Below are positions 5,140-34,702 of a stretch of DNA of 34,702 nucleotides, one piece after another. Positions within the stretch are counted from its first letter, which is position 1, and each line of letters starts with the position of its first letter. The position numbers and the translations under genes are program-made. Under the pieces are notes generated by a model. The model ran no database searches. It was not told the DNA's origin and saw nothing but the letters and a program-made list of their open reading frames with translations. This DNA comes from a virus, in the IMG/VR virus record IMGVR_UViG_3300025871_000002, one strand, 5' to 3'.

Positions 5140-5526
5140 ATGAGAAAGTTAACCTCAAAACAAAGAGAGTTCATTAAACAAAAATTGGAGAATCCCGGGA
5201 TAAGCAATTCGAGGGCAGCGATTGCGGCGGGGTATAGCCCAAATACTGCAAAGAACGCCTTAAAGAATATCATTGAAAATCGTGGCACGCAAAAGTTTAT
5301 TGAAAGACTAGCAAACGATGACGTGCTAGCTTTCAAACTAAACGAGGGGTTGGAGGCTTATCGGGTAGATATAACCGGGGACAAGCAGCCGGATTTTAAA
5401 ACGAGGTTGGAATATATCCGGGAGATGCTGGGGCTGAAAGGTTACAAAACCGAACCCCCCAATCTCAACCAGGTAAATGTTGATATGAATTTAGAATTTA
5501 TTGGTAAAGATGAAAGTAGTACTTAG
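5140..5526 (+). CDS. terS: Terminase small subunit
   Basis: LTSKQREFIKQKLENPGISNSRAAIAAGYSPNTAKNALKNI is the typical N-terminal HTH of small terminases. The gene lies immediately upstream of, and overlaps, the large terminase. Confidence 0.7.
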   Translation: MRKLTSKQREFIKQKLENPGISNSRAAIAAGYSPNTAKNALKNIIENRGTQKFIERLANDDVLAFKLNEGLEAYRVDITGDKQPDFKTRLEYIREMLGLKGYKTEPPNLNQVNVDMNLEFIGKDESST

Positions 5527-6811
5527 CCCATGGCAACTGGAAGTCGCAAGGGATTCCCACCGCTTCAGAATTGTTTGCTCCGGCAGACGGAGTGGCAAGT
5601 CGGTTCTAAGCCGGCTGGTGGTATTGAAGTGGGCGTTGGAGAATCCCGGTCTGTATTGGATTGTTTCACCAAGTTATCGGCAGGCCAAGATGATCCATTG
5701 GCGGGAATTGCAAAAGGAGATTCCTTATGGATGGATTAGGAGTAAAAATGAAGTTGAACTTTCTATCACCCTTAAAAACGGCAGCGTTATTAGCCTTAAA
5801 GGAGCTGAGAACCCAGATGCGCTTAGAGGCGTTAAACTGCGGGGTCTGGTTATTGACGAGATTGCTTCTATCCGCAACTGGGAATGGCTTTGGCCGGAAG
5901 TCCTACGTCCTACACTTACGGATTATGCCGCACCTGTCATGTTCATTTCTACGCCCAAGGGCTACAATCACTTCTACAATTTGTACCAGCAAGGGCAAGG
6001 TGATGACCCACAATATAAATCTTGGCGGTTTACGTCATACGATAACCCCTATGTAAGCAAGGAGGAATTAGACAATGCGAAAAAAGAACTTACGGAAGAC
6101 ACCTTCGCCCAGGAGTACCTGGCCGACTTTAGGAAGTACACAGGCCTGGTCTACAAGGAGTTCCAAAGGGAAATCCATGTTATTGAACCGTTTGATATTC
6201 CGGAAAGCTGGAGTATCTATCGGGGAATTGACTTCGGATCAACTAACCCTACGGCATGCCTGTGGGTTGCGGTTGATAATGATGAAAACTGGTTTATTTA
6301 TGACGAACATTACCAAACGGGACAAACGATTGATTACCATGCGGGAGTCATTAACTCTCGGACCAGGAGAAACGTTACAGCTACCTATGGGGACCCAAGC
6401 GGCGCCCAGTGGATTAACGAGTTCGCCCAAAGGGGAATCTACATCACCCCGGCCACCAAAGAAGTCGGTACCAGCTTCAACTCCTGGGTTAGGTTCGGTA
6501 TCGAGAAAGTCAGCGAAAAACTTAAAGCTATCCCCGGCAGAATTGTGCCAAGTGTGCCGGCAAAGCCCAAGCTGCCAAGCCTTTTTGTCTTTTCCGGCTG
6601 CGAAAACACCATTAGGGAATTTGAAACCTACCGTTGGAAAGAAAAAAGCGTCAGCCGGGCGCAGGATCTAAACGAACCGGATGTGCCGGAGAAGGCCAAC
6701 GATCATCTTATGGACTGCACAAGATATATCGCGGTCAGTTACCAGAAGAAGGGGGAGGAGATTGTCCTTCCTGATGACACCATATTATTTAAAGAAAACG
6801 GCTTTTACTAG
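5510..6811 (+). CDS. terL: Terminase large subunit
   Basis: Walker A CSGRRSGKS, Walker B LRGLVIDEIA, and nuclease acidic motifs GIDFGSTNPTA and NDHLMDCTRY. ATG 5510 is preferred over the track's TTG 5501. Confidence 0.92.
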   Translation: MKVVLSPWQLEVARDSHRFRIVCSGRRSGKSVLSRLVVLKWALENPGLYWIVSPSYRQAKMIHWRELQKEIPYGWIRSKNEVELSITLKNGSVISLKGAENPDALRGVKLRGLVIDEIASIRNWEWLWPEVLRPTLTDYAAPVMFISTPKGYNHFYNLYQQGQGDDPQYKSWRFTSYDNPYVSKEELDNAKKELTEDTFAQEYLADFRKYTGLVYKEFQREIHVIEPFDIPESWSIYRGIDFGSTNPTACLWVAVDNDENWFIYDEHYQTGQTIDYHAGVINSRTRRNVTATYGDPSGAQWINEFAQRGIYITPATKEVGTSFNSWVRFGIEKVSEKLKAIPGRIVPSVPAKPKLPSLFVFSGCENTIREFETYRWKEKSVSRAQDLNEPDVPEKANDHLMDCTRYIAVSYQKKGEEIVLPDDTILFKENGFY

Positions 6812-11574: not shown

Positions 11575-12498
11575 ATGGCAACAGACAACCTAACAAGTAC
11601 TCTTACGCCGGCAATGTCGACTTACTACGAAAAGGTTTTCTTAGCAAAGGCGCAGTACAAACTGGTCCTTGAAGAAGGAGGCCAAGTAAGAACGCATCCG
11701 GCTAATGAGGGTAAGACAGTCAACTTTACCAGAATGTTACCATCGGCGATTGACGCTTCGCCCTTGACTGAATCCTGCAACCCGCCGGCTTGTATCATCA
11801 GCGCCTGTACGGTAGCGATGACGCTGGCTGAGTATGGAAAAACTTTCCGAAGCTCAAAGTTTCTTTCTTTGACTTCGATTGACTCCAAACAAAAGGAATT
11901 CATTGAAGTGGCCGGTCAATCAATGGGGGAAACTCTGAACCGTGTCGTCCGAGAGGAACTCCGCAACGGCACCGCCTTCAGACCGAATGGTCATACGGTG
12001 GCGACCATGGCGGCAGGGGATGTCCTTTCCGCTTCAGCGATCAGGGAGATGGTTAAGACTTTAGAGTTAGCTTACGCATTACCCTATCCTGACGGGACGT
12101 TCATGGGAAAGACCAATCCTTACTCCAAATTCAGTTTGCTCGGAGATTCGACTTGGATTAACGCCAAGACCTACTCCGATGTCAAAGACCTGTATATGGG
12201 GGAGATGGGAGAACTGTACCAAGTCCGATGGCTGAACAACTTGGACGAGCAGGCCGTTTGCGAGGCAACTTCAACGGCAGCTTCCACGGTGGCGGTTTAC
12301 TACACCTATGTTCATGGAGACCAATCCTTTGGTGTCTATGACCTGGCAGGTGACCAGCCGAAGTTGTACATTCTTCCCAACGTGGTGGACTCCGGTTCAC
12401 CTGCGGGCAGAATCAGCTTAATCTCTTGGGCAGGTTCTTACGTAGCTAAATTGTTGAACGACGAATGGGTATTGGCTTGCAGATTTACAGCGGCATAA
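11575..12498 (+). CDS. Major capsid protein (HK97-fold type, 307 aa)
   Basis: Positioned after the scaffold gene. The N-terminus TSTLTPAMSTYYEKVFLAKAQYKLVLEEGGQVRTHPANEGKTVNFTRM is typical of the podovirus and N4-gp56-like capsid family (recollection). A strong hairpin follows. Confidence 0.8.
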   Translation: MATDNLTSTLTPAMSTYYEKVFLAKAQYKLVLEEGGQVRTHPANEGKTVNFTRMLPSAIDASPLTESCNPPACIISACTVAMTLAEYGKTFRSSKFLSLTSIDSKQKEFIEVAGQSMGETLNRVVREELRNGTAFRPNGHTVATMAAGDVLSASAIREMVKTLELAYALPYPDGTFMGKTNPYSKFSLLGDSTWINAKTYSDVKDLYMGEMGELYQVRWLNNLDEQAVCEATSTAASTVAVYYTYVHGDQSFGVYDLAGDQPKLYILPNVVDSGSPAGRISLISWAGSYVAKLLNDEWVLACRFTAA

Positions 12499-20917: not shown

Positions 20918-23900
20918 ATGGCCTCACTTAGGGACCTGGCGGAAAGGATAAAGGCTTACTTTAACCCAACTTCAACCGTTGGACAAAATTTCTGGTCAAC
21001 ACCGGTGGCGCAGAGGTTAGGCCAGGCCCAACAAATAACCGAACCGATTTTGAAAACGGTACAGACAATCAATCAATACAACCCCTATGCCAGGATTGTA
21101 GAACCTATCGAGATGGGACTAGCCAAACAAATCGGGAGACCATTGGTAAATTACGGTAAGTTTATTGGGGCAGGTTTAATTCAACAACCTATTTTGGCAG
21201 CAACCAAAGGCAAAATAAATGTTCCCTTTTACTCGCCGCAGGAATTCGAAAAAGTAGCCACTCCTAAACAAGCGGCCCGGGAAGGAGTAAAGAACATTAC
21301 TGGAGCAGCATTATCGGCGACAAGTCTTTTCAGTCCAACAGCTATCGCTTATCGTGCTTTCCCCGCCATTTACGGAATTGGCTCGAAGCAAGGAATTGGC
21401 AAATCGATTGAAGAATTTGCTGGGCCAAGTAGGCTAATAGAAACACTTACCAAGAGTCCAGGGTTTGAAGAAACAAAAGTAGGGAAAGCGATTGACACAG
21501 CAGAGTTGTTAATTGGTCTAGTTCTTAATCGAGGGATTGATGACATGGTTATTACTGCTATCAAAAACAGGTTTGGTGCTTCTAGCAGGCTAACAAAGTT
21601 AATGGAAAAAGCACCGGCAATGGGGTTGACCGATGTTTCGCCGAATGTCTTTAAGATTCACCCGGAAGATCAGGACGTTATGGAAAGGTTCTATGATGCC
21701 GTTAAATTTAAAGGGAAAAGCAAACAACCATTGGGAGATTTAGGGAGGAGTGCTCAAGATATTGCCGAACACTATTTTGGGGCAAAGTGGCGCAATGTTT
21801 CCAATAAAAAGTTAGCCGATGCTTTTGCTTGGGCCTTGGATGTTAATCGGAATATACCCTTAGTGTCTAGGGGAAAACTCCCCAAACTTGGAATAATGGG
21901 ATTTACAGAAGGCCCCGTAGGTCGAGAAGGCCAAGCAATATCAAAGCTAGGATTAGGAGTTGGACAAGAAGTTCCCACCAAAATCGTTTCATCTGATTTT
22001 ACCAAAGTAGAAAATAAACCCCGATTAGGTATGCAATCGGAAATAGAATTACAAAAAGCCAAGGTTTTACCCGATCTTTCAGCACCGCCCAAATCATTAC
22101 CTGAATCACAAATAGGCCAAATAGAACGTAAGCCTTCATTACAAGATCAGCAAGCATTAAATGATATTATAGCACAAGGAAACAAACAAATCGGTTCGGC
22201 TACTGAGCAAGGCGGAAAATCACTTCGTCAGATGTTTAGCGACTTTTATACCCAATGGATTGACCGATATAACCCGATTGTTCAAGCCTCAAGAAAGGCG
22301 AAAGAAACCTTAAAAATTAAAGGGGCAGAGTTAAGGCCGGAATACGATCCGGAATATTTGGTAAGAAGGTTAACCGGAGCAGGGGGGATTGCCGACTATC
22401 GCTTCCAGACAGAACTTAACCCTATAATCAAGTCGATTGACCAAGCGGGGATTCCCAAGCTGGACCTAGACACTTACTTGGCTAACAAAAGGATTGCCGG
22501 GTTTGGAGAGATTGGCCGAAAGATCAAAGGAGCCGACCCGGAGCAGGCGAGACAGATTGTAACAGCGATTGAGGCAAAATATCCCCAAATCGGCCAGATT
22601 GCCCAAAGCCTCTACGACTACCAGAACAAAGGCTTTCAGGAGATGATCGACGCCGGTTTCCTTTCCGAAGATACCGCTAAACTTATTCGCCAGCAAAATC
22701 CCGACTATTCGCCGTTAAAGAGAGTCATGGACGAAGTCAACGACTATCTTGGGTTACCGACCAGAAAGACAATGCAAGGAACGCAACCGATCTTCAAGAT
22801 CAAGGGTTCGGAAAGAAAGATCGAATCTCCACTAGAATCAATTATCGGAAATACTTTTAGTCAAAGGGCGGCGATAGAGAAGAATCGGGTCGCCAGGTCG
22901 ATTGTCGGGCTTCAGAATATAGCACCAGAATTAGGTTTCAAGAAAGTCGGGTCGGCAGGATCGGACACCATCACGGTTTGGCAAAACGGGAAGAAAGAGT
23001 ATTGGCGGGTCGGGAGCGAGATTGCTGAGGTAGCTAAAGGAGTAAACGAGGAGGCGATGAATCTGGTTCTTAAAATCATCAAAGCCCCTGCTTCGATACT
23101 AAGACAGGGAGCGACCGGTCGTAACCCGGAGTTTATGATTCCTAATGTCGTTAGAGATCAACTGGACGCCGGGATTTCTTCAAAATACGGTTATATTCCT
23201 TTTGTTGATTATGTAAGCGGTCTTTGGTCTATGTTAACTAATGATGAGGTTTACCAAAAATGGCAGAAGTCGGGAGCAAAGATTGATTTAGGCGAATTAT
23301 CGGGCAAAAAGTCAATTAAGGCCATGTTTGACGAGAAAACCAGCAAAAAGAATTTGTTTAGTTGGCTTAGTTCAGGATTGAATATTCTCGGTAGGTATTC
23401 GGAACAGCCGACAAGGGTTGGATTGTTCAAAAAAGCCTACGAAAAAACCGGTAACGAGTTATTGGCGGCGGTGGAGTCGAGGGACGCTACCGTTGACTTT
23501 GCCCGCATGGGGTCAAAAATGAAAGTAGCCAACTCAATTATTCCTTTCCTTAACGTTGGCGTTCAAGGATTCGACAAACTTATCCGCGCCGTCAAAGACA
23601 ACCCCTTTAGAGTTCTAATAACGGCGGGTATTTATGGAGTATTACCCCAGATAACCTCAACCATTTACAACCTGCAAAACTTCCCGGAGGAATACAAAGA
23701 GATTCCCCAATATGAGAAAGACAGCAACTTTGTCTTGGTTAAAGGGAGAAACAGCAAGGGAACCGTCGATTACATTACTATTCCCAAAGGGAACATTGTT
23801 CCGATCGTTGCTAATCCCGTCCAATCATTTTTAGATTATCTTTACAAAACCGACAGCCAGTCTTTTTATAACATGGCTATGAACGTTATGTCCGACACGC

Positions 23901-24946
23901 TCCCAATACTGGGGCAGGGTTCAAGTCTCAAGGAAATCGGCCTCAAAACTATCGGAGGCAACCTTCCCCAAGCAATTAAACCAATTACGGAAAACCTTAT
24001 CAATAAATCTTTCTGGAAATACAACCCCAACAAAGAACAGGCAAAAGAGATTGTTCCTTCTTATTTGCAGGCCCGGCCTGCTTATTTGCAAAAATACGCT
24101 TTTACGCCCAAGATGTATCAAACAATCGGAGCAGTTCTAAACGTCTCTCCGCTTCAGGTTCAGAATTTAATGGAAGGTTACTTGGCCGGATACGTTAAAA
24201 TCCCCGCCCAGATTATTGATATGCTTTACCAATCATCGAGAAATGAACCAGTTAATCCAAACAACAAAACTATTTTAAGAAGGTTTATAAAGGAAACTTA
24301 TCCTTCAAGTGGTTACCAACCGGTTCAAAAACCGCCGGGACCAGGATTAATTGAAAGAATTACCAGTCAAGTCGAAGCGGCCGGGAAAGGGACAGCGATG
24401 AGTCCGGCGATGGAGAAATATGCGATTGAGGATAAAAAGTACGAAATGAGATCGAAAAAATTAAAAACCGCCGAGGTAAACGGCAAGGTCCTCTACACAA
24501 AAGAGAATGGCGACATAAGGGTGATCGATCCCGCGTTCCAACCAACACCACCAAAAATTACCGGCTTGACCGAGTTAGATAAGAAATCAATCTCCAGGTT
24601 TAATGGAGAAATAACCCAAAAAGCGAATGATATTTACGATCTGTACAGGGCAGGCAAAATAAGTGTTGAAGAAGCCGATAGACAACTTACCGACCTAAAG
24701 GGACTTAAGGAGAAATATGCCGCCCCCAAGAAGGCCAAGAAACCCGCGAAGATCACCATTAGGAAAGTGTCCGTTCCTAAAACCAACATCAAGATTAAGA
24801 AAGCCGGAGCTTTGAAACTTAAAAAAGCGCCGGTAACCAAAGTAACCAAGATTAAACCCAAAAGCATTAAAATCGCCACTACCAAGTATAAATTGCCCAA
24901 AGCCAAGAAAATTAAGGGCTTGACGAAAGGGATAAAAATAGTATAA
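20918..24946 (+). CDS. Giant virion-associated protein (1342 aa), probably an internal/ejection or polyvalent protein
   Basis: Largest ORF, located in the tail module of a genome with no tape-measure, tube or sheath genes. The last ~100 aa are Lys-rich (KKAKKPAKITIRK...KIKKAGALKLKK...KAKKIKGLTKGIKIV). Confidence 0.65.
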   Translation: MASLRDLAERIKAYFNPTSTVGQNFWSTPVAQRLGQAQQITEPILKTVQTINQYNPYARIVEPIEMGLAKQIGRPLVNYGKFIGAGLIQQPILAATKGKINVPFYSPQEFEKVATPKQAAREGVKNITGAALSATSLFSPTAIAYRAFPAIYGIGSKQGIGKSIEEFAGPSRLIETLTKSPGFEETKVGKAIDTAELLIGLVLNRGIDDMVITAIKNRFGASSRLTKLMEKAPAMGLTDVSPNVFKIHPEDQDVMERFYDAVKFKGKSKQPLGDLGRSAQDIAEHYFGAKWRNVSNKKLADAFAWALDVNRNIPLVSRGKLPKLGIMGFTEGPVGREGQAISKLGLGVGQEVPTKIVSSDFTKVENKPRLGMQSEIELQKAKVLPDLSAPPKSLPESQIGQIERKPSLQDQQALNDIIAQGNKQIGSATEQGGKSLRQMFSDFYTQWIDRYNPIVQASRKAKETLKIKGAELRPEYDPEYLVRRLTGAGGIADYRFQTELNPIIKSIDQAGIPKLDLDTYLANKRIAGFGEIGRKIKGADPEQARQIVTAIEAKYPQIGQIAQSLYDYQNKGFQEMIDAGFLSEDTAKLIRQQNPDYSPLKRVMDEVNDYLGLPTRKTMQGTQPIFKIKGSERKIESPLESIIGNTFSQRAAIEKNRVARSIVGLQNIAPELGFKKVGSAGSDTITVWQNGKKEYWRVGSEIAEVAKGVNEEAMNLVLKIIKAPASILRQGATGRNPEFMIPNVVRDQLDAGISSKYGYIPFVDYVSGLWSMLTNDEVYQKWQKSGAKIDLGELSGKKSIKAMFDEKTSKKNLFSWLSSGLNILGRYSEQPTRVGLFKKAYEKTGNELLAAVESRDATVDFARMGSKMKVANSIIPFLNVGVQGFDKLIRAVKDNPFRVLITAGIYGVLPQITSTIYNLQNFPEEYKEIPQYEKDSNFVLVKGRNSKGTVDYITIPKGNIVPIVANPVQSFLDYLYKTDSQSFYNMAMNVMSDTLPILGQGSSLKEIGLKTIGGNLPQAIKPITENLINKSFWKYNPNKEQAKEIVPSYLQARPAYLQKYAFTPKMYQTIGAVLNVSPLQVQNLMEGYLAGYVKIPAQIIDMLYQSSRNEPVNPNNKTILRRFIKETYPSSGYQPVQKPPGPGLIERITSQVEAAGKGTAMSPAMEKYAIEDKKYEMRSKKLKTAEVNGKVLYTKENGDIRVIDPAFQPTPPKITGLTELDKKSISRFNGEITQKANDIYDLYRAGKISVEEADRQLTDLKGLKEKYAAPKKAKKPAKITIRKVSVPKTNIKIKKAGALKLKKAPVTKVTKIKPKSIKIATTKYKLPKAKKIKGLTKGIKIV

Positions 24947-30461: not shown

Positions 30462-30932
30462 ATGAACAGAAAACTAATGTTTAGTAATATTAACAATGCT
30501 TGGTGCACTCCTCAACCCTTTTTTGATAAGTTGAATATGGAGTTTGGTTTTACACTTGACCCTTGTGCTACTGAAAAATCAGCAAAATGTGAGAAATTTT
30601 ATACAGCAAAAGAAGATGGCTTAAAACAAGATTGGCGGGGAGAAGTTGTTTTTGTTAACCCTCCTTATGGCAGACAAATTGGAAAGTGGGTAAGGAAATG
30701 TTTTGAAGAAAGTCAAAAACCAAATACGACCATTGTTATCTTGATGCCAGCAAGAACAGATACAAGATACTTCCACGATTATATCTTAGGAAAAGCAGAA
30801 ATTAGATTTATTAAAGGCAGATTGACATTTTGGGATTTAGATGGAGAGAAGTTCAAAAAGGGTAAGTTTGACGAGATGACTCCTGCACCATTTCCAAGTA
30901 TGTTGGTTATTTACAAGAATGAAAGAGGATGA
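30462..30932 (+). CDS. dam: Phage Dam-family DNA N6-adenine methyltransferase
   Basis: AWCTPQPFFDKLNMEFGFTLDPCA, VVFVNPPYGRQIGKWVRK (NPPY catalytic motif), and ILMPARTDTRYFHDY...IRFIKGRLTF. Confidence 0.9.
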   Translation: MNRKLMFSNINNAWCTPQPFFDKLNMEFGFTLDPCATEKSAKCEKFYTAKEDGLKQDWRGEVVFVNPPYGRQIGKWVRKCFEESQKPNTTIVILMPARTDTRYFHDYILGKAEIRFIKGRLTFWDLDGEKFKKGKFDEMTPAPFPSMLVIYKNERG

Positions 30933-31009
30933 AGCAATCATAGTCGGGTTTATTACCACTTTGTTTTTTACTGCTTTTATTATTAGGTTCTTTGAAGAAA
31001 GGAGTAGCA

Positions 31010-31435
31010 ATGGGAGAAAGAGAAAATAGGCTTTTTCGGCTTCAGCAACTGCCCGGGACAGAACAGGAGCAGGCCCTCACCTTTGCCGAATTAAAAGAAG
31101 AAATAGAGGCAAGGGTAGACGAAGAAAAAAAACCCGGACAGGTCAAAGAGATTGAAAGGGCGCGTTTCTTGGCCGTCTTGGACGAAAACCTTAAATATCT
31201 CTATGACGAACTTATAGGCCTTCAACTCCATATCCGACAGATGGAAAACATCAAGGCGGATTTGTTTGAGGCGGAAGCGCAAGGAATGAGGATTCAGTTT
31301 GTAGAACAGGACGGAGAAATAACTTTCCGGGCTTATCCCAAAGAGCAAATGGGCTTTGCCAAACCGCTCAAGGTTGAGGACTCGGCCAAATGGCAACAAA
31401 CGGCTCGACAACGGCAAGCCAAAAGGAATGGCTGA
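31010..31435 (+). CDS. Hypothetical coiled-coil protein (141 aa)
   Basis: SD aaggag lies before ATG 31010. Its stop overlaps the next ATG (ATGGCTGA). Confidence 0.5.
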   Translation: MGERENRLFRLQQLPGTEQEQALTFAELKEEIEARVDEEKKPGQVKEIERARFLAVLDENLKYLYDELIGLQLHIRQMENIKADLFEAEAQGMRIQFVEQDGEITFRAYPKEQMGFAKPLKVEDSAKWQQTARQRQAKRNG

Positions 31436-33536
31436 TTGGAAACAATTAGAAAACGACCTCGGTTATCAAATTTATACAAAGGAGGAAATCAGAATGATGA
31501 AAGAAATCGGAAGAATAATCACGGACTCCAAAGGAACGGAAAAACCTATTTATCCCGGAACTTCACCCAACCTGCCAATTCAAGGGGAAGGAGAGATTAA
31601 ACGCCCCACTTTTACCACTTACGAGGAGGCACTGGAATGGAACAAACAGGCCCAGAAGCACACCGAACAGGCCATCAGCTTCACCCAAGAATACGCCAAG
31701 AGAATAGTTGAACCGCAATACGGCAACCGGATCATGGTCGTAAATGTCAGCGATGTTCATTGGGGACATTTTGACGTAGATTACGATTATGTTGACCAGC
31801 TTTTTAACCTCATTGAAAAGACCCCGGACACCTATTGTATTTTCGGCTGGAACCTCTTAGACGCTGCTATTCCGGCCCAATTCCCCGATGGCGTGATGTG
31901 GTCGGGACAGACAGCCCAAGAACAGGTTTACACCTTCAGGGATAAATTAAGGCGGCTGGATGGGTTGCACAAGATTCTGGGGGCAATAGGAGATTCACGT
32001 TGCTACGATGGAGAAACGGAAGTTTTGGTTCGTAATCATGGGTTTGTCAGATTTGACGCTTTATTAAAAAATGAATTTCCCAATGAATTAGAAGTGGCAA
32101 CTTTAAATTTACAAACAGGTGAATTTGAGTGGCAAAAACCAACAAGATGGATTAAAAAATGGCATAAGGGAAAAATTTATAATTTTGTTAATCAAAAAGT
32201 GAACTTTATGGTAACCCCCGACCATAATATGCTTTATTTTGAGAGAGAAGATAAACTCAATTTTAAAAGAATAGAAGCCCGGAATTGGGAACAGGGGGGA
32301 AAGCAATTTGTAAAAGGGAGTTGGAACTGGAAAGGTGTAAATAAAAAGAAATTATTTGGGTATGATGCAATTTTATTTATGCAATTATTGGGTTGGTATA
32401 TTTCTGAGGGGTATGTTCATAATTTGAAAAAAGGAAATATAGAAATTTGTCAAAAAAAGGAAAGTAAGTATTATTTAGAAATATGCGAATTATTAAAAAA
32501 AATGGGGATACATCCCATCAAATGTAAGACAGGAGTTCAATTTACAAATAGAAATCTTGCTAAATACCTCAAGAAACTTGGTTATTCGTGGAATAAATTT
32601 ATACCAGACGAATTTAAACAGTTATCCAAGAGGCATTTGTTGGCATTTTTATATTCCTATTGGAAAGGCGACGGTTACTTTGGGGATGGAAAAAGATGGA
32701 GGAAAAAAGATTCCCCAATTTGTTGTTCTACCGCAAGTAAACGACTCGCTTCCGATTTAGTTGAAATTATAATTAAGTGCGGATGGGGAGCAATGTTTTC
32801 TGAATGGGAAAGAGAAGCTGGTAATTTATTTCCAAATGGAAAACGGGCAAAAACAAGAAGAACACAATATAATGTAAATATATGCAGGAATATATTTCCA
32901 CATTTTCGTTCTAAACCTAAAATTAGAGAATATGACGACTATGTTTATTGCTTGAGTGTTCCAAATGAAGTCATTTTAGTAAGAAGAAAAGGGAAAGTAG
33001 CCTATAATTTTCAATGTCATGAAGGTTGGATGAAGCGCACGACAGGCTGGATGATATATCGGGAGTTGTTTGAGGGGATTGACGTACCGCTTCTTCTTAA
33101 CGGCGGGTATTTAGACGTTCAGGTAAAAGACGAGAGTTATCGGATAGGGCTTTTCCATAAAATTAAATACTGGTCTCAGTTTAACAAGACTCACGGCGGC
33201 GACAGGGCGATGGATAGGCTGGTGGATGCGGAGATTGTCTTTACTTCCCACCTTCACCAAGCCGCTACCGGCCAATCGCAGAGATATAATCCTCCTTTTA
33301 CGAAAGAGACGGCGGTTGTTTCTTCAGGAACCTGCAAACTGCACGACAAGTTCGCCAGGGGCATGATGGGATCGGAAGGAGAAAAAGGCGGGCAGGCAAT
33401 TATTCTCTGGGCGGATAAGCATAAGTTTAATACCGTCTTTGATTTGGAAGTCGGAAGCGAAATGATGTTTGACATGGTAAGGGCTAAAAACCTGGAGGAA
33501 CTGGCCAAAGTGAGGGAAGCCATCAAAAACCTCTAA
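31428..33536 (+). CDS. Calcineurin-like metallophosphoesterase precursor interrupted by an intein
   Basis: Extein motifs: VVNVSDVHWGH (DxH), LGAIGDSR/CHEGW (GNHE-like motif III, split by the intein), and VFTSHLHQA (GHxH-like). The start is set at ATG 31428, overlapping the upstream stop. Confidence 0.8.
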   Translation: MADWKQLENDLGYQIYTKEEIRMMKEIGRIITDSKGTEKPIYPGTSPNLPIQGEGEIKRPTFTTYEEALEWNKQAQKHTEQAISFTQEYAKRIVEPQYGNRIMVVNVSDVHWGHFDVDYDYVDQLFNLIEKTPDTYCIFGWNLLDAAIPAQFPDGVMWSGQTAQEQVYTFRDKLRRLDGLHKILGAIGDSRCYDGETEVLVRNHGFVRFDALLKNEFPNELEVATLNLQTGEFEWQKPTRWIKKWHKGKIYNFVNQKVNFMVTPDHNMLYFEREDKLNFKRIEARNWEQGGKQFVKGSWNWKGVNKKKLFGYDAILFMQLLGWYISEGYVHNLKKGNIEICQKKESKYYLEICELLKKMGIHPIKCKTGVQFTNRNLAKYLKKLGYSWNKFIPDEFKQLSKRHLLAFLYSYWKGDGYFGDGKRWRKKDSPICCSTASKRLASDLVEIIIKCGWGAMFSEWEREAGNLFPNGKRAKTRRTQYNVNICRNIFPHFRSKPKIREYDDYVYCLSVPNEVILVRRKGKVAYNFQCHEGWMKRTTGWMIYRELFEGIDVPLLLNGGYLDVQVKDESYRIGLFHKIKYWSQFNKTHGGDRAMDRLVDAEIVFTSHLHQAATGQSQRYNPPFTKETAVVSSGTCKLHDKFARGMMGSEGEKGGQAIILWADKHKFNTVFDLEVGSEMMFDMVRAKNLEELAKVREAIKNL
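32001..33014 (+). mobile_element. Intein with a LAGLIDADG homing-endonuclease domain (about 338 aa)
   Basis: N-terminal splice block CYDGETEVLV...; TPDHNML (block B-like); LAGLIDADG motifs LLGWYISEGYV and FLYSYWKGDGYF; C-terminal blocks VYCLSVPNEVILVRRKGKVAYNFQ followed by Cys. The insert is visibly more AT-rich than its flanks. The exact C-terminal boundary is uncertain. Confidence 0.8.
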
Positions 33537-33549
33537 AACTTGAGCCTAA

Positions 33550-33804
33550 ATGGCCCTTGACAAACAAAAATCAAAGGCTTATCATCGAAGTATGAAATCG
33601 ACCGAAGTTCCATACCAAGAACGGCCAGACTACGAGAAAATCGAGAAACTCCTTAAATTATACCGCACCGGCAGCTATACACAAACCTCGCTTGCTAAAA
33701 TGTGGAAGATCACCCGGCAAAGAGTAAACCAAATTATCAAGCAATATGGAAAGGAGGTGAAAACAAATGACTCGGGATCAAAAGGAGATCGCCCGCGAGA
33801 TTGA
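33550..33804 (+). CDS. Helix-turn-helix DNA-binding protein (84 aa)
   Basis: YTQTSLAKMWKITRQRVNQIIKQYG is a classic HTH, like sigma region 4 or a transcription-regulator HTH. Confidence 0.6.
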   Translation: MALDKQKSKAYHRSMKSTEVPYQERPDYEKIEKLLKLYRTGSYTQTSLAKMWKITRQRVNQIIKQYGKEVKTNDSGSKGDRPRD

Positions 33805-33970
33805 GAAACTTATCGTCAAGCAGATAAAGAAAGACGCCGATATTCTTAAAGTTTCATACAGCAAGGGCTACAAGGATGGCTACAGATGCGGAGTTGATGA
33901 TTACAGAAAAACAATAGATAATTTAAAGGAAGCTTACGAAACCGATAGTTGGGGTCATTATGAGGGATGA
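33767..33970 (+). CDS. Hypothetical protein (67 aa)
   Basis: ORF with SD aaggaggtga upstream. Overlaps both neighbouring genes. Confidence 0.45.
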   Translation: MTRDQKEIAREIEKLIVKQIKKDADILKVSYSKGYKDGYRCGVDDYRKTIDNLKEAYETDSWGHYEG

Positions 33971-34305
33971 ACGATTTTGCTAAAAGCATTGGCTTGGAAG
34001 AAAAGAAAAGATCTTATCCGGTTTATCAATACTCAATCTTTACCAAAAACGGGCGGGATGAGCAGTTAGTTATTCGGGCCGACACCTTTGAAGAACTGAT
34101 AGAGGCGAAAAGAAACATAGACAAGATTTTAGAGAAAAGAGAAGTAGCCCCAGCTCAACCCACTAAACCGGCCAACAAGACCTTTGTTTGCGCCAAGTGC
34201 GGTCAAGTGGCCGAATACAGAGAGGGTAAAAACGACCAAGGAAAAGAGTGGAGAGGGATATTCTGCACCGATAAAGAGAACTGCAAGTTTGTGAAGTGGC
34301 TTTGA
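33967..34305 (+). CDS. Protein with a C-terminal topoisomerase-type C4 zinc finger (112 aa)
   Basis: FVCAKCGQVAEYREGKNDQGKEWRGIFCTDKENCKFVKW fits the C.kCg...g..g.f..C....C pattern. Confidence 0.55.
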   Translation: MNDFAKSIGLEEKKRSYPVYQYSIFTKNGRDEQLVIRADTFEELIEAKRNIDKILEKREVAPAQPTKPANKTFVCAKCGQVAEYREGKNDQGKEWRGIFCTDKENCKFVKWL

Positions 34306-34358
34306 GCTTTGCGAGTGTTCGTTTCCGCAAGGCAACGAGCACTAAGGAGAACTCAAAA

Positions 34359-34517
34359 ATGATTTACGAAAACAAATGTTCAGATTGTAAAAAACTGATT
34401 ACCGAAGGCGAGGCCAGTTATTCCTTCCACGCTTGGGGAAAAGAATTGTGTTTTACCTGCCAAGAGAAGGCAAGGGATGAAGTAAGAAAACAAAGGGAAC
34501 TTTTAAAAATCAATTAG
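34359..34517 (+). CDS. Small zinc-ribbon protein (52 aa)
   Basis: SD aaggag lies before ATG 34359. Motif: CSDCKK...CFTCQEK. Confidence 0.5.
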   Translation: MIYENKCSDCKKLITEGEASYSFHAWGKELCFTCQEKARDEVRKQRELLKIN

Positions 34518-34575
34518 CGATTTGGAAGCTTATAAGTTTTAAACGGACACGGCGGTTCGGGACACCGATTTTGAA

Positions 34576-34702
34576 CATTTATTGTTCCGCCCCAATAGGG
34601 CCACCTCTCCTGAGCCGCTCTGTTTATTTAAAACTATGCGAAGGCCAGCAGAATGTATAACAACCTGCCCATACAATCAGTCTTAGCGATATATATTCCC
34701 AA
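34576..34702. repeat. Right copy of the exact 127-bp terminal direct repeat
   Basis: Identical to 1-127. It re-starts the first gene (ATG at 78 corresponds to 34653). Confidence 0.95.

Follow-up and report, generated by a model that had tools for sequence, protein, structure and literature searches.

A Gln-ending LAGLIDADG intein ahead of the conserved Cys-His-Glu of a predicted phage phosphoesterase

Introduction

Inteins that end in Gln do splice. The PolII inteins of Pyrococcus abyssi (Pab) and Methanoculleus marisnigri (Mma) splice slowly and perform better when the terminal Gln is changed to Asn (PMC4031507, PMC8175363), the RNR intein of Chilo iridescent virus (CIV) splices more efficiently with Gln than with Asn (PMC4031507), and the Pab PolII intein is gated by a disulfide between Cys1 and Cys+1 (PMC8175363). 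The penultimate His is absent from many functional inteins (PMC4031507, PMC8175363). Here we describe a Gln-ending insert in the virus record IMGVR_UViG_3300025871_000002, a stretch of 34,702 nucleotides referred to below as the window. The insert, at 32001-33014, interrupts the gene of a predicted calcineurin-like phosphoesterase, and its best explanation as a whole is very probably that of a class 1 intein in which a LAGLIDADG homing endonuclease with two motifs is nested inside a HINT splicing domain. An earlier reading of the window made without database searches (the sequence-only reading) had proposed a LAGLIDADG intein at this position, with a noncanonical C-terminal splice junction.

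Results

The interrupted gene lies on the + strand in an open reading frame (ORF) that runs from 31356 (TTG) or 31428 (ATG) to 33536. The ATG is the more plausible start; it is preceded by AAAGGA, it overlaps the stop codon of the upstream gene, and the N-terminus read from it matches the long homologue P0011 with 98% coverage. The translation reads ...LGAIGDSR/CYDGETEVLV...VRRKGKVAYNFQ/CHEGWM... (slashes mark junctions), in which the insert occupies exactly 32001-33014, 338 codons in frame with the gene 31428-33536, which encodes a precursor of 702 aa. Its excision leaves LGAIGDSRCHEGW and a spliced protein of 364 aa. The GC fraction of the insert is 0.321, against 0.473 and 0.479 for the flanking parts of the gene and 0.452 for the whole window, in agreement with the AT-richness remarked on in the sequence-only reading. 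The insert and the boundaries given in that reading are exact, with a match to intein-less homologues that goes far beyond chance. The parts of the element are listed here, with A1 denoting the extein-family alignment and A2 the intein-family alignment.

31428-32000, + strand: N-extein, ending ...LGAIGDSR and carrying enzyme motifs I and II (ORF coordinates, homologue P0011)
32001-33014, + strand: intein of 338 aa, missing in 50 homologues (Pfam, AF2/Foldseek and family matches)
32001-32003, + strand: Cys1 (TGC), nucleophile of splicing step 1; C9 of A2, nearly invariant
32211-32225, + strand: block B VTPDH (TxxH); V79, T80, P81 and H83 nearly invariant in A2
32385-32414, + strand: LAGLIDADG motif 1 LLGWYISEGY with the catalytic Glu; E144 and G145 nearly invariant in A2
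32649-32681, + strand: LAGLIDADG motif 2 LYSYWKGDGYF with the catalytic Asp; G231, D232 and G233 nearly invariant in A2, motif identical in P0051
32940-32969, + strand: block F YVYCLSVPNE, with Cys at F:4 and Glu at the block-F His position
32979-33014, + strand: block G VRRKGKVAYNFQ, with terminal Gln (CAA, 33012-33014) and penultimate Phe; ungapped family alignment
33015-33536 (stop included), + strand: C-extein, opening with the +1 Cys (33015-33017) of CHE and carrying enzyme motifs III, IV and V

The spliced extein retrieved 51 relatives from a collection of 5.8 billion proteins, 50 of which are insert-free and 313-363 aa long. These 50 read ...ILGAIGD(s)SCHEGW..., equal in length to the spliced ILGAIGDSRCHEGW of the window, with Cys-His-Glu invariant in A1. 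The junction DNA of the intein-less alleles L004 and L006 is co-linear with that of the window, reading GGAGATGCTTCA/TGCCATGAAGG in L004, GGTGATTCCTCT/TGCCATGAAGG in L006, and GGAGATTCACGT/TGTCATGAAGG in the window; the intein-less junction from L004 or L006 can also be written ...GGAGATGCTTCA/TGCCATGAAGGATGG.... Because the intein-less homologues equal the spliced window protein in length and the junction DNA of the two alleles is co-linear with that of the window, the excised element is C1...Q338 with Cys at +1. The boundaries R/C...Q/C are fixed by two independent alignments, one of the exteins and one of the intein family. The intein-less alleles that the sequence-only reading had suggested looking for were found as these 50 proteins, and they place the insertion point before the invariant Cys of CHE.

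Pfam LAGLIDADG_3 (PF14528) scored above cutoff in the insert (E 2e-7 to 3e-8). The insert alone retrieved full-length relatives of 25-32% identity in unrelated host proteins, including Mcm (so named by its source) and proteins with Pfam ThyX, prohead protease, tape-measure, or LamG-type domains, and when 1.84 billion representatives were searched exhaustively with phmmer, there were 5633 matches at E<=1e-3, of which 113 reached E<=1e-30. The N-terminal junction x/C(Y/F)D..T is found in nearly all of the family relatives. An AlphaFold (AF2) model of the insert, built with A2 (pLDDT 84.1, pTM 0.86), matched TliVMA (E 5e-19), PhoVMA (E 8e-17), PI-TkoII (E 1.5e-13), PI-SceI (E 2e-12), and PI-PfuI (E 3.5e-12) in Foldseek, with lower matches to I-DmoI and numerous mini-inteins, that of Pab PolII with its Gln ending among them. 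Phmmer searches of the intein against PDB sequences gave just a marginal match, to the AceL NrdHF intein. The insert has the features of an intein: in-frame insertion at a conserved site, Cys1, Cys+1, the block B TxxH, two LAGLIDADG motifs with their acidic residues, and HINT and LAGLIDADG folds. At two positions it differs from class 1, with Gln at G:7 in place of the C-terminal Asn and Phe at G:6 in place of the penultimate His.

Two other assignments were considered and rejected. A class 3 intein does not agree with the presence of Cys1, with Met at B:12 (TPDHNM), or with Asn at G:5, and there is no WCT triplet, although Cys is present at F:4 (VYCLSV). A bacterial intein-like (BIL) domain does not agree with the presence of an endonuclease, the +1 Cys, or the precise fit to intein-less alleles.

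The C-terminal end of the insert was compared with 222 intein copies in 164 proteins (210 copies for block F). No gaps are needed to align the last ~25 residues, which read ...VYCVTVPNHxIYVRRNGKxxWxGN/(C/S/T) in the family and ...VYCLSVPNEVILVRRKGKVAYNFQ/C in the window. The terminal residue is Asn in 202 of the 222 copies and Gln in 8, the penultimate residue is Gly in 188 and His in 5, and the +1 residue is Ser (111 copies), Cys (70), or Thr (33). The block-F His position holds His in 91 of the 210 copies, Gly in 64, Ser in 15, and Glu, as in the window, in 11; Cys is found at F:4 in 161/210. The final Gln of the window occupies the column of the catalytic Asn, and the Asn of AYN falls in a variable column (C, S, T, and others). 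On this alignment, the Asn three residues before the Cys appears to play no part in splicing. The extein and intein-family alignments agree on a last residue Gln, a +1 Cys, and no penultimate His, as the sequence-only reading had it, and they exclude the canonical HN/C boundary that it had considered an alignment might reveal. Its description of the C-terminus as unusual stands for the Gln and less so for the Phe; the missing penultimate His, to judge from the family alignment, is the norm in this intein family. Gln-ending inteins had also been called rare but documented, and so they are, both in this family (8/222, recurring sporadically in various hosts with no obvious common theme) and in the literature (PMC4031507, PMC8175363).

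The family holds other noncanonical endings. In P0080, P0099, P0123, P0073, and P0111, the intein copies seem to have Glu, Asp, or Arg as their last residue, for example ...AASHE/T, ...WTID/S, ...WTCR/S, and ...IGVR/T, ahead of exteins that recur (TDWWAF, SDKE..). Indels may have misaligned some of these copies; others may be further non-Asn termini. Among P0068-P0100, P0082, P0095, P0115, and P0122, many proteins are very large (1000-3700 aa), with two to five copies of this intein type per polypeptide.

A second Gln-ending allele, P0051, belongs to the window's own extein family and carries its intein at the same site, ending ...VRRKGRVVFNHQ/CHEGW (NHQ/C). Its contig, L001 (JGI 3300045118, contig Ga0438315_0073971), is cut within the intein, and the N-terminal half is missing. 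The Gln codon is CAA in the window and CAG in P0051/L001. The L001 allele has a penultimate His and a Gly at the block-F His position, and the GC fractions of intein versus extein are 0.40 vs 0.48 in L001 and 0.32 vs 0.48 in the window.

The closest intein relatives after P0051 are P0066, P0067, P0079, and P0101, found at the homologous site ...ITGD/C...N/CHEGW... and ending HHN, NYN, GSN, and HSN, respectively. P0101 is a fragment; the other three are full-length and share 40-45% identity with the window intein. Between spliced P0066 and the window extein there is a weak alignment (E 0.027) that spans motifs I-III and keeps CHEGW in register. Because these same-site cousin inteins end in Asn, the Gln is read as a lineage-specific Asn-to-Gln change, and the alignments point to a derived state common to the window and P0051. 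By the genetic code, going from Asn (AAY) to Gln (CAR) would take two nucleotide changes.

We compared the window with L001 at the codon level. Over 171 codons of the intein, the two are 67% identical in protein, with a dN of 0.255 and a saturated dS (NG86 5.15); over 151 codons of the C-extein they are 60% identical, with a dN of 0.329 and again a saturated dS. All 45/45 columns without variation among 46 intein-less homologues are preserved in the spliced extein of the window, and the P0051 C-extein retains all 29/29 of the invariant columns that it covers. The window has kept Cys1 and Cys+1, TPDH in block B, and the acidic residue of each LAGLIDADG motif (ISEG, KGDG). These comparisons indicate that intein and C-extein have long been under purifying selection with a Gln-ending intein in place.

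The host enzyme is recognized by its motifs, as follows.

31746-31769, + strand: motif I, VSDVHWGH; D109-x-H111 invariant in A1
31845-31865, + strand: motif II, GWNLLDA; W141-N142-x-x-D145, with W141 and D145 invariant in A1
33015-33023, + strand: motif III, CHE; C192, H193, and E194 invariant in A1
33150-33170, + strand: motif IV, the His in LFHKIKY; H239 invariant in A1
33240-33260, + strand: motif V, the SHLH in FTSHLHQ; S269, H270, and H272 invariant in A1

The order and spacing of these residues (DVH, WNLLD, CHE, H239, SHLH) fit the DxH...GDxxD...GNH(D/E)...H...GHxH of the calcineurin-like superfamily, with two deviations. The spliced 364-aa protein matches PHROG 7339, "DNA repair exonuclease" (E 1e-21). 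Neither the spliced window extein nor the intein-less homologue P0001, which is 70% identical to it, matched Pfam Metallophos or Metallophos_2, and the extein-family profile had no match among PDB sequences. The P0001 model (pLDDT 84.7) matches the PolD DP1 exonuclease (E 1e-7), Mre11, Vps29, PP5, YmdB, and LpxH. The cousins belong to another phosphoesterase family that is closer to the canonical type: once spliced, P0066 and P0079 score above the Pfam cutoff for Metallophos or Metallophos_2, and a profile of the cousin family found in PDB only a BirA-like N-terminal winged helix-turn-helix (wHTH) and a marginal PolD DP1 stretch. Because of the predicted fold, the PHROG 7339 match, and the Pfam-positive cousins, we identify the extein as a phosphoesterase, with a predicted calcineurin-like fold.

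The deviations concern metal ligands at two invariant positions. In motif II, Asn replaces the usual bridging Asp (W-N-L-L-D), and in motif III, Cys replaces Asn (C-H-E); the corresponding motifs of the cousin family (P0066, P0079) read AGNLVDGE and DCHEGW. They may be a sign that the family prefers another metal or uses another chemistry. Going by motif order, the +1 Cys would correspond to the Asn in GNH(D/E). On that order, the intein therefore lies inside motif III, directly ahead of its first conserved residue, and the +1 nucleophile doubles as an invariant residue of the enzyme. Motif order and predicted fold thus uphold the placement in motif III of a metallophosphoesterase made in the sequence-only reading, with the refinements that the motif reads CHE and that the Pfam Metallophos cutoff is not reached.

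Close copies of the element are scarce. Megablast with 31000-34702 matched none of the phage records, and tblastn of the spliced window extein found no match in 50,697 phage records. No copy was found in a scan of viral contigs with the intein, and the extein alignment, run against viral contigs in the same way, retrieved just two alleles, both of them intein-less and in IMG/VR contigs. A metagenome scan with the alignment of the window and P0051 gave just two distant LAGLIDADG loci (L002 and L003), and a scan of one-genome-per-species bacterial and archaeal assemblies with the extein alignment detected no prophage copy. The sequence-only reading took a mobile intein to imply recent exchange, which these searches do not bear out: the closest relative of the intein shares 67% protein identity with it at saturated dS, and no close copy turned up in the collections of phages, viral contigs, metagenomes, or genomes.

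The window as a whole resembles phage DNA, and every gene lies on the + strand. Its other annotated features are listed here.

5140-5526, + strand: small terminase
5501-6811, + strand: large terminase (TerL)
11575-12498, + strand: major head protein
20918-24946, + strand: 1342-aa protein matching PHROGs of unknown function only (phrog_9854, E 4e-73), themselves giant proteins
30462-30932, + strand: Dam-type DNA N6-adenine methyltransferase (phrog_111, E 7e-56), two genes upstream of the interrupted gene

The first 26 bases of the large terminase ORF are shared with the small-terminase-like ORF. As listed, TerL opens with a TTG codon and matches the 807-position PHROG 2 profile only over positions 265-595. 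The 1342-aa protein is probably structural or ejected. Between the methyltransferase and the intein gene lies a 147-aa ORF (30992-31435) with no PHROG match. In phage contigs, the intein-less alleles adjoin genes for CHAP or GH25 lysins, RusA, and Rad52.

Discussion

We propose that splicing would begin with an N-S acyl shift at Cys1, followed by trans-thioesterification onto Cys+1. The terminal Gln338 would then cyclise to an aminoglutarimide in step 3, freeing the intein, and an S-N shift would restore ...GDSR-CHEGW... and hence the metal-binding motif of the enzyme. The expected target of the endonuclease is the stretch around ...GGAGAT(NNNNNN)/TG(C/T)CATGAAGG... in intein-less alleles, and the intein would be copied into the cut allele during mixed infection.

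The window intein most likely still splices by Gln cyclisation: because the invariant extein residues are kept and the intein is under purifying selection, it is probably functional. Several points weigh against this reading. Pfam Intein_splicing is weak in the insert (E 0.005, 17 bits vs a cutoff of 35.8). The window intein is without the three usual aids to step 3, having Gln for the terminal Asn, Phe for the penultimate His, and Glu for the block-F His. Just two Gln-ending alleles were found at the site, one of them a fragment without the N-terminal half of the intein, and the saturated dS between them leaves no meaningful dN/dS ratio to quote. We infer splicing from conservation only, and the Gln cyclisation and the endonuclease activity are likewise predicted.

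The absence of the three step-3 helpers could be taken much further, to mean that splicing has been lost along with the terminal Asn, the penultimate His, and the block-F His, that the phosphoesterase is dead and interrupted, and that the element is a decaying relic, a state akin to the splicing-impaired intein and inactive enzyme entertained in the sequence-only reading. All three helper positions are indeed noncanonical in the window, and at 0.32 the GC fraction of the intein is still far from that of the host gene. We consider such a relic very unlikely, as its frame is open across 338 codons, its Gln is common to two alleles that are just 67% identical and use different Gln codons, and dS is saturated at a dN of 0.255. 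Cys1, TxxH, Cys+1, and the acidic residue of each LAGLIDADG motif are retained, and the full sets of extein invariants (45/45 in the window, 29/29 in P0051) would be unexpected in an inactivated gene. Splicing is on record for Gln-ending inteins (PMC4031507). Another proposal would remove the anomaly by ending the intein at the Asn of ...KVAYN and assigning FQ to the C-extein. There is an Asn three residues ahead of the Cys, and P0067 also has Asn there (WNYN/C). Phe is unable to serve as a +1 nucleophile, by established intein chemistry; not one intein-less homologue has two extra residues ahead of CHEGW; and the Asn stands in a variable column, whereas the column of the Gln is the terminal Asn in 202/222 copies. 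The AYN/F junction was rejected on these grounds, and we give it practically no credence.

Because three step-3 helper residues are absent, splicing of the window intein could be slow. A refinement of the preferred explanation, and not an exclusive alternative to it, holds that splicing is slow or conditional, needing for instance reduction of a Cys1-Cys+1 disulfide, and that the Gln acts as a posttranslational timer or switch for the phosphoesterase during infection. The Cys1/Gln/Cys+1 arrangement is that of the slow, disulfide-gated Pab PolII intein, which the Gln-to-Asn change improves (PMC4031507, PMC8175363), and the Gln has been kept across two diverged alleles. Against this, Gln need not mean slow, since for the CIV RNR intein it is Gln, and not Asn, that gives the better splicing (PMC4031507), and Gln endings are scattered over many exteins in the family. 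This refinement seems to us unlikely, if less so than a relic.

The insertion site, before the invariant Cys of CHE, is new, and the phosphoesterase family is known only from uncultured phages. A Gln ending is already documented, and the locus reveals no new kind of element or mechanism. The window adds a clearly delimited, naturally Gln-terminated phage intein that carries a homing endonuclease, and its Asn-ending relatives at the same site offer matched material for asking how inteins compensate for the loss of the canonical Asn and His. The site is consistent with the rule that inteins target catalytic motifs. An Asn-to-Gln switch within one homing-site family, with selection maintained despite the missing penultimate and block-F His of the window, would make a natural experiment; there is some slight chance that it conceals an undescribed catalytic arrangement for step 3, or slow or redox-gated splicing at the motif III Cys that times activation of the phosphoesterase.

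Among described inteins, the window intein resembles the Gln-ending PolII inteins of P. abyssi, P. horikoshii, and M. marisnigri and the CIV RNR intein in having Gln in place of Asn, with presumed aminoglutarimide chemistry (PMC4031507, PMC8175363), and it shares Cys1 and Cys+1 with the PolII inteins. The latter are mini-inteins that end His-Gln and keep the block-F His, whereas the window intein terminates in Phe-Gln, has Glu in place of the block-F His, and contains a complete LAGLIDADG endonuclease. No close sequence relationship to the PolII inteins is detectable; that of Pab (2lcj) comes up solely as a fold match to the HINT part (E 1.5e-3). Unlike the PolII and RNR cases, the host protein here is a bacteriophage enzyme.

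The inteins of the mycobacteriophage RDF/calcineurin-like phosphoesterases (for example Bethlehem gp52; Kelley et al. 2016, PMC5050341), like that of the window, interrupt motif III of a phage metallophosphoesterase. Mycobacterium phage Bethlehem gp52 (L007 4578-6296) reads ...EGNHD/C...LTGN/S..., with the insertion after GNHD, three residues downstream of the site equivalent to that of the window, which lies before the Asn-equivalent residue. Because the insertion points differ by three residues, the two inteins are not allelic, and they appear to be independent insertions in the same motif. The Bethlehem intein has a canonical Gly-Asn end and is ~20% identical to the window intein (pairwise E 1e-3), and its extein is not detectably similar to that of the window (tblastn, 50,697 phage records). 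The metagenomic inteins of P0066, P0067, P0079, and P0101 include the closest full-length relatives and share the GD/CHEGW site but end in Asn, in cousin exteins that have a BirA-like wHTH N-domain and are marginally alignable with the window extein (E 0.027). The archaeal and yeast inteins with homing endonucleases (TliVMA, PhoVMA, PI-TkoII, PI-SceI, and PI-PfuI) end in Asn, occupy other hosts and sites, and are 10-17% identical to the window intein, yet they have the same architecture and fold, HINT with a nested LAGLIDADG endonuclease (E 5e-19 to 1e-9, TM 0.55-0.63).

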